Below are positions 11,201-11,897 of a stretch of 64,000 nt of DNA, one piece after another. The DNA is from Hydrolagus colliei. Its lineage: Eukaryota. The translations under genes were made by a program, and so were the position numbers. The stretch covers positions 930,001 to 994,000 of the forward strand of contig CM068769.1 of assembly GCA_035084275.1 (NCBI GenBank), in the 5' to 3' direction. Position 1 is the stretch's first letter, and each line of letters starts with the position of its first letter. The notes under the pieces are model-generated. The model made no database searches, was not told where the DNA came from, and worked only from the letters and a program-made list of their open reading frames with translations.

Positions 11201-11897
11201 TACATGGTGAACAACAGCGTATTAAAAGTTTCTGTTCGACCAGACCTTTGATTAGTTTTTTCAAATAAGGAACAGCTTCTTTACGCAGAGGATATTGTCT
11301 TACGGAAGGAAATAGTTGATCGCCCAAGACCTTTTTTAATTCAATATATACAGGTGGGGAATCAACCAGTCCAACATGCGAGGCGTCTTGTGCCCATATT
11401 TCGGGTGATACATAATCAAGAATATGAGTACTTGAGTGATGAATCAGAATAGATTCCTCCACACCTGGGACTGGATAATATTGAACGGAGACCCCATGGC
11501 TGGGGAATTCCTGAATGTTGATACAGTCTGTGTGAGCCAGTTGAATAGCCTGATAGACCATCGGGCCTAGCTCCCGAGCTTTATAGGGAGGGGTGGTAGT
11601 GATAGTAATATGGGGGCTTGTTCGACCAGTCTGTTTCCAAATGTCTTGTGGAATTGAAACTATTAATGCAACTCCTTTAGTACTCCAAACTTTACCAGTT
11701 ACATATACTCGGTATGATTTACCCAAAAGGGGTTTAAACAAATCCTCAAGAGACGCTGCAAATCCCCCAGAACCATACGCCAACGTAACATGCGCCTTAC
11801 GAGTTTGTAATTCCAAAGTCCACCATTGAGGGACATTTGTAAGGTACATCATAGGGGAGGGGGGTGGCAAGATAGAAATCTTCTCGTCATCACACAT
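8270..11897 (-). pseudogene. pol: ERV-A pol (2H-phosphoesterase-like, RT, RNase H, integrase)
   Basis: LPQGFVNSP and YVDD (RT); YSDGSS/AQACEL/YTDSRY (RNase H); HHCC, DFIQ/SDNG/VER and GPF (integrase). One frameshift near 9490 and one stop at 8828. Confidence 0.96.

Follow-up and report, generated by a model that had tools for sequence, protein, structure and literature searches.

The window analyzed here is a 64,000-nucleotide stretch of contig CM068769.1 of Hydrolagus colliei (assembly GCA_035084275.1, positions 930,001 to 994,000). It contains a minus-strand provirus at about 6262-15190 in which gag, protease, an insert with a 2H phosphoesterase domain, reverse transcriptase (RT), RNase H, integrase and a gamma-type env follow one another (Table 1). 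The element is an epsilon-like class I endogenous retrovirus (ERV) in a defective copy: the PR-2H-RT-RNase H-IN order, the gag stop in the protease frame, the gamma-type env, the long terminal repeats (LTRs) and the primer-binding site are all present. ORF 9426..11897 on the minus strand is open for 823 aa and contains matches to RVT_1, RT_RNaseH and RNase_H downstream of the 2H domain. The position of the gag stop suggests a read-through layout, and in another natural copy of the element, L005, the gag stop is followed by protease, insert and RT in a single frame. An earlier note on this DNA had described the domain as embedded in Pol between protease and RT. That order holds, but in the window copy an in-frame TGA severs the protease from the 2H domain, so this particular copy makes no continuous PR-2H-RT protein.

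Table 1. Features of the provirus, in window coordinates, from its 5' to its 3' end
Feature	Position	Strand	Evidence or remark
5' LTR	14684..15190	(-)	97.5% identity to the other LTR over 476 nt; outer end approximate
Primer-binding site	14664..14681	(-)	matches the tRNA-Ser(GCT) 3' end plus CCA; host tRNA-Ser(gct) genes with that end present
gag region, broken over several frames, with zinc knuckle	12231..14160	(-)	gag stop TGA at 12231-12233, in the protease frame
Retroviral aspartic protease frame (DSGA)	11901..12230	(-)	PF00077, E 9e-9; intact-looking
In-frame TGA ending the protease frame in the window copy	11898..11900	(-)	
CNPase-like 2H phosphoesterase domain, ~148 aa, between protease and RT	11400..11843	(-)	predicted model; N-terminal boundary inferred
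First H-x-T motif, HVT (in AHVTLAY), His36 at 11792-11790	11784..11792	(-)	aromatic residue at His+5, the CNPase Phe235 position
Second H-x-T motif, HIT (in PHITI), His96 at 11612-11610	11604..11612	(-)	
Helix after the second motif, Gly at His+15 (ELGPMV)	11538..11579	(-)	model helix 89-102; equivalent of CNPase helix alpha7/Gly324
RT, connection and RNase H in the 2H-domain frame	9426..11399	(-)	PF00078, E 2e-26; PF17917/PF17919; PF00075, E 1.5e-19
Integrase, stop-interrupted	8270..9589	(-)	rve, E 2.1e-15; MLVIN_C, E 2.8e-14
env, two frames	6978..8181	(-)	TLV_coat, E 2.1e-16
3' LTR	6262..6860	(-)	LTR-LTR comparison; inner end approximate

A second, related LTR element occupies positions 28483-35567 of the window, and its LTRs are 99.7% identical over 756 nt. 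Inside, it aligns at 87% with the first provirus over the RNase H end, integrase and env but is without most of gag, the protease, the 2H domain and RT; it is likely a young non-autonomous deleted form. Tandem 65-nt repeats lie in the 5' leaders of both elements (14316-14450 and 34189-34575), and the LTRs of both hold tandem repeats of 72-80 nt. A run of N at 42439-42931 has no bearing on the 2H domain.

The starting observation had been that about 160 residues between protease and RT contain two intact H-x-T motifs 60 residues apart. We confirmed both motifs in ORF 9426..11897, with 60 residues separating His36 from His96. Such a pair is unlikely to be accidental: in 20,000 shuffles of the insert, HxT motifs 55-66 residues apart arose 16 times, and we reject a chance origin. 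The extent first given to the domain stood at its 11400 end and shrank at the other, to about 148 aa. A 50-row alignment (A2, described below) suggests that the ORF opens with ~18 aa of what is likely protease tail, which places the N-terminal boundary as listed in Table 1. In the same ORF, IWAQDASHVGLV begins at aa 167.

To build A2, we combined 44 of the 74 matches from a profile search of 1.84 billion representatives with six genomic copies; long proteins and non-retroviral matches were left out, and the alignment contains no solved CNPase. The His of motif 1 is present in 45 of the 50 rows (the other five are gaps) and is followed by Tyr or Phe at His+5 in 48. The His of motif 2 is found in 48 rows, its Thr or Ser in 47, and the Gly at His+15 in every row. 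A model predicted from A2 reached a pLDDT of 90.3 and a pTM of 0.83 (an earlier model from 19 close copies, with a pLDDT of 32, was set aside), and in it each HxT motif opens a beta strand (strands 18-24 and 78-83), as in the 2H fold.

We compared this model with 48,161 chains using an exhaustive structural aligner. Mouse CNPase (2xmi) aligned over 137 residues with a Z score of 14.0, an rmsd of 3.1 and 13% identity, and was the only chain at Z ≥8, the next reaching 6.5 or below. Lower scores were obtained for drCPDase (6.5), VP3 (6.5 and 6.0), plant CPDase (6.2), Acb1 (5.6), NS2 (5.2), AKAP7 (4.9 and 4.7) and the penguinpox cGAMP phosphodiesterase (PDE; 4.7); 11 of the 12 chains with Z ≥5 are 2H proteins by title or by what we take their identity to be. 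Foldseek agreed, in that all PDB matches listed at E <0.001 were CNPase or RICH entries except for a fungal RNA kinase entry, 6u05, and CNPase stood at the top. Its viral search returned the WEHV-1 polyprotein first (E 1.2e-7) and the WDSV polyprotein fourth (E 3.5e-6). The 2H/CNPase fold proposed in the earlier note was upheld by these comparisons, and we consider it nearly certain that the modeled domain belongs to the CNPase branch.

Sequence searches reach less far. No Pfam family attained its cut-off for the insert in any of 19 copies (best E 0.012), and a search of these copies with PF05881, the catalytic domain of vertebrate CNPase and fish RICH, gave no match; the N-terminal PNK-like domain is likewise absent, with the protease upstream instead. 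For the window copy the best lead was sub-threshold (PF08302, E 0.057), and two of the 19 copies weakly matched the Acb1 profile (E 0.22). In the best Atlas clusters, 31% and 63% of members bear PF08302, and the non-retroviral matches in the profile search were tRNA-ligase CPD-type proteins (P0051 and P0070). Searching PDB sequences with the single domain gave no matches, and profiles A1 and A2 gave two weak ones each, the sole relevant one being goldfish RICH (E 1.5). A word-based search for longer homologues of the single domain found none among 373 candidates.

The retroviral domain shares with the PF05881 proteins its fold, the two HxT motifs, the aromatic residue at His1+5, and the helix with its Gly at His2+15. 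The equivalent helix, alpha7, is described in a section of PMC4643303 as special to CNPase and tied to 2',3'-cyclic specificity (CNPase residue numbers used here come from that section, from PDB titles and from counting from His309). The two also differ, since the retroviral domain has 148 aa compared to about 215 in CNPase and carries Lys or Arg at the position of CNPase Val321 in 39 of the 50 A2 rows, so its pocket differs. Around the helix Gly it aligns gap-free with AVQTG of the host CNPase, whose gene was the only one that a PF05881 search of the H. colliei genome found. Over the whole domain the alignment to host CNPase is weak (hhalign probability 52%) and the domain is common to RT lineages of 41-95% identity, and we therefore rejected a recent capture of the host gene. 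Likeness to the CPDase of Trl1-type tRNA ligases (PF08302) consists of the Pfam lead, the Atlas clusters and the profile matches noted above; unlike that enzyme, the retroviral domain is fused into Pol, without a ligase or kinase neighbor. With the AKAP7-derived 2',5'-PDEs (rotavirus VP3-CTD, MHV NS2 and MERS NS4b) and the cGAMP PDEs (Acb1 and penguinpox) it shares the 2H superfamily, the paired HxT/S motifs and the fact of being virus-encoded, but these enzymes belong to another branch. Indeed, asking whether the AKAP7/VP3/NS2 type is the closest fold gave an answer against it, with Z scores of 4.7-6.5 compared to 14.0 for CNPase.

Searching the H. colliei genome with the insert yielded at least 35 matches among 44 candidates scored. 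We fetched 30 loci; these represent 29 distinct copies and fall into two families (73-100% and ~40% identity). RT lies downstream in all 30 loci, and the protease is visible upstream in 26. Motif 2 is intact in 29/29 distinct copies and motif 1 in 28/29, which bears out the expectation that the HxT motifs would be conserved across the family. To look for selection, we calculated pairwise Nei-Gojobori dN/dS for 12 of the 30 loci, picked for an in-frame RT. Within the near family, pairs drawn from its two different subfamilies (dS 0.9-1.2; pairs not independent) had a dN/dS of 0.10-0.16 for the insert, 0.10-0.17 for the protease and 0.03-0.08 for RT. In this comparison, which the earlier note had proposed, the 2H domain is under purifying selection at a level like that of the protease. 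The window copy and its nearest copy, separated by few changes, gave values of 0.96 for the insert, 1.28 for RT and 1.97 for the protease; ratios near or above 1 are expected from neutral decay after insertion.

Deleted forms also occur among the genomic copies. Six of them (L046-L050 and L052, on our contigs C13, C1, C2, C6, C33 and C31) share a deletion from ~13827 to 11253-11275 in window numbering that takes out most of gag, the protease and the 2H domain, and this one shared deletion indicates that the deleted form was amplified in trans. In L053 (C21:11504-15067), an in-frame deletion fuses the protease to RT residue 42, with loss of the 2H domain and of the RT residues before that point.

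The domain is not peculiar to the window element, a possibility we rejected because other fish ERV lineages and the walleye viruses WDSV and WEHV-1 have it. Within the H. colliei genome, the domain with its two motifs occurs in four RT lineages, whose identity to the window RT is 85-95%, ~56%, 48% and 41%; among 20 extra loci, three distant ones (~35%) have a protease abutting RT, and the rest are truncated or unscorable. The domain is also present in named relatives from skates, catsharks, a devil ray, a sevengill shark and many teleosts (one protein, P0076, is labelled both tilapia and ferret). For a view blind to the insert, we searched with RT and obtained 63 proteins, of which 31 were unscorable and one failed our filter. 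Eighteen have the domain, the 13 named ones all being from fishes, and in 13 the protease abuts RT, the five named ones all being from tetrapods. The nearest named RT relatives of the window element are ERVs of skate, catshark and sevengill shark; together with the OAS genes of the host (below), this fits a cartilaginous fish but does not single out a shark, as the earlier note had called the source. One public skate gene model, P0009, combines ERV-derived 2H-RT sequence and an array of C2H2 zinc fingers in one protein, a fusion that may be an annotation artefact.

We mapped the domain onto a quick, midpoint-rooted RT tree of 87 of 105 rows; the remaining rows, 17 unscored ones and a protein with an internal deletion, were dropped, and the tree holds no WDSV, MLV or other reference viruses. 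In this mapping, called for in the earlier note, the window family falls in a cartilaginous-fish clade of 18 rows, 16 with the domain and two unscored, and about seven label changes are needed overall. A single early gain followed by losses is a plausible account of this pattern. Among 16 named teleost ERV proteins checked, 11 keep both motifs, three have an altered motif 2 and two are truncated. The altered proteins are tuna and croaker ERV Pols (P0101, P0102 and P0104) in which the helix Gly is also mostly replaced; their lineage has possibly lost or changed the activity.

Retroviral 2H domains have been described before. An available portion of PMC9503650, citing Mazumder 2002, places them in fish retroviruses including WDSV, and a portion of PMC4977317, citing Basta 2009, states that teleost epsilon-like ERVs sometimes encode CNPase, in keeping with the mention of such inserts in the earlier note. 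That note had allowed that novelty may be limited to cartilaginous fishes and to function; novelty is in fact lower, because the exogenous viruses WDSV and WEHV-1 have the domain and this is in print (PMC9503650, same portion). In teleost ERV proteins the homologous domain likewise lies between protease and RT. The identity of the window domain to the walleye virus domains is 18-20%, and the structural matches there are to the WDSV and WEHV-1 polyproteins as wholes. Compared to the teleost forms it is shorter, missing ~50 residues before motif 1 (238-251 aa from the protease Asp to the RT start, compared to 290-309), and it belongs to an element of the cartilaginous-fish clade. Our literature search, whose coverage excluded most subscription journals, turned up no experiment on the function of a retroviral 2H domain. 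The main text of a 2025 preprint on viral 2H PDEs (bioRxiv 2025.08.21.671373), as far as it was available, lacks the string "retrovir", though its supplements could list such a protein, and a study of elephant-shark ERVs (Han 2015, PMC4422223) does not mention CNPase, phosphodiesterase or phosphoesterase. Excerpts of PMC8672886, PMC3185560 and PMC5434554 served as background only. The domain is thus of a known type and not a new gene type. What we add is its placement on the CNPase rather than the VP3/NS2 branch, the purifying selection, a host-range argument against 2-5A as substrate, and its spread in cartilaginous fishes, where a single genome has it in four ERV lineages and ERVs of skates, rays and sharks have it too.

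What might such a domain do? A CNPase-type fold points to hydrolysis of 2',3'-cyclic phosphates, and cyclic-phosphate chemistry is probable for the predicted domain. Our preferred reading, which we hold at about even chances, is a Pol-encoded, virion-borne cyclic phosphodiesterase that acts on RNA ends or on 2',3'-cNMPs. In an intact virus, read-through at the gag stop would produce the domain within a packaged Gag-Pol, and the protease would then either release it or leave it attached to the RT N-terminus; its position in Pol would entail low-level synthesis and packaging. One His would activate water and the other protonate the leaving group, opening the cyclic phosphate to a 2'-phosphate and a free 3'-OH. 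Substrates could be free 2',3'-cNMPs or the cyclic-phosphate ends that host RNases leave on RNA such as the tRNA primer, met inside the particle or in the reverse-transcription complex. The dUTPase domains of other Pol proteins, which tidy the nucleotide pool, offer an analogy. The processing of tRNA or RNA ends raised in the earlier note fits the predicted fold, and we put the clearing of such ends or of 2',3'-cNMPs as the biological role at slightly short of even.

Several observations weigh against this reading. A shared fold shows no substrate, and here it comes with 13% identity to CNPase and a changed Val321 position; in available parts of bioRxiv 2025.08.21.671373, substrates differ greatly among viral 2H enzymes, and for some of these the test panel contained none. 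It is not obvious that RT could prime well from a 2'-phosphate end, no kinase or ligase accompanies the domain as in tRNA-healing enzymes, and motif 2 is altered in the tuna/croaker lineage. Additionally, many class I retroviruses do without the domain, as the 13 of 63 RT matches with an abutting protease demonstrate, and reverse transcription in general can thus proceed without it.

The domain might instead degrade cyclic dinucleotides such as 2'3'-cGAMP, for instance cGAMP co-packaged in virions, and so blunt STING signaling. Other viral 2H enzymes do this, with Acb1 and the penguinpox PDE among our fold matches; the basic residue at the Val321 position and the weak Acb1 matches of two copies would agree, and cGAS-STING, which is present across fishes, would suit the wide fish distribution. 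Cleavage of cGAMP is therefore compatible with host range, but the predicted fold does not favor it (Z 5.6 and 4.7 for these two enzymes compared to 14.0 for CNPase), and the CNPase-type helix after motif 2 is thought, in the section of PMC4643303 cited above, to restrict substrate size. Tetrapod class I viruses also face cGAS, yet all five scorable named tetrapod proteins are without the domain. On balance we regard this role as unlikely.

Host CNPase opposes RtcB ligation, and the same chemistry as in our preferred reading could serve a different end if unpackaged Gag-Pol in the producer cell turned RNA>p into 2'-phosphate ends and blocked host ligation or signaling (e.g., of the RtcB type). 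This is a proposal only, and we give it little credence, since read-through Pol is low in amount and a poor source for a cell-wide antagonist.

The earlier note had raised, as one option, a role like that of VP3 and NS2, in which a 2',5'-phosphodiesterase would break down 2-5A and so keep RNase L inactive. The host does have a tandem cluster of about five OAS genes (C28:1805710-1843942, with one OAS-like piece on C1), VP3 is our third structural match (Z 6.5), and according to part of PMC10400998 OAS-RNase L works in a cartilaginous fish. The same source places the loss of this pathway in the ancestor of ray-finned fishes, yet 11 of the 16 named teleost ERV proteins keep both motifs and the walleye viruses carry the domain. 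Furthermore, known viral 2',5'-PDEs descend from AKAP7 (PMC10835031, in part), which scores just 4.7-4.9. A CNPase-branch fold and intact motifs in viruses of teleosts without OAS-RNase L make a role against 2-5A very improbable. We find it equally hard to credit that the domain has given up catalysis and today serves Pol chiefly by binding RNA or as a spacer, although three tuna/croaker proteins have an altered motif 2 and many class I viruses lack the domain, because both His and Thr/Ser are kept as an active-site pattern across lineages that are ~20% identical.

In a bolder reading, fish class I retroviruses may ancestrally have carried in their particles a fifth Pol enzyme: a nuclease of CNPase fold, retuned through its basic base-pocket residue against an immune messenger (such as co-packaged cGAMP or 2',3'-cNMP) or serving to rescue RNase-clipped primer tRNA. 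Lineages infecting tetrapods would then have lost this enzyme repeatedly. We offer this broader scenario as speculation that is more likely wrong than right by a wide measure. If it is true, retroviruses would have here their first enzyme directed against immunity based on nucleotide messengers or RNA ends. A conserved Pol enzyme could reveal an unrecognized step of retroviral biology, and the retroviral domain might hint at the in vivo targets of CNPase-type enzymes.
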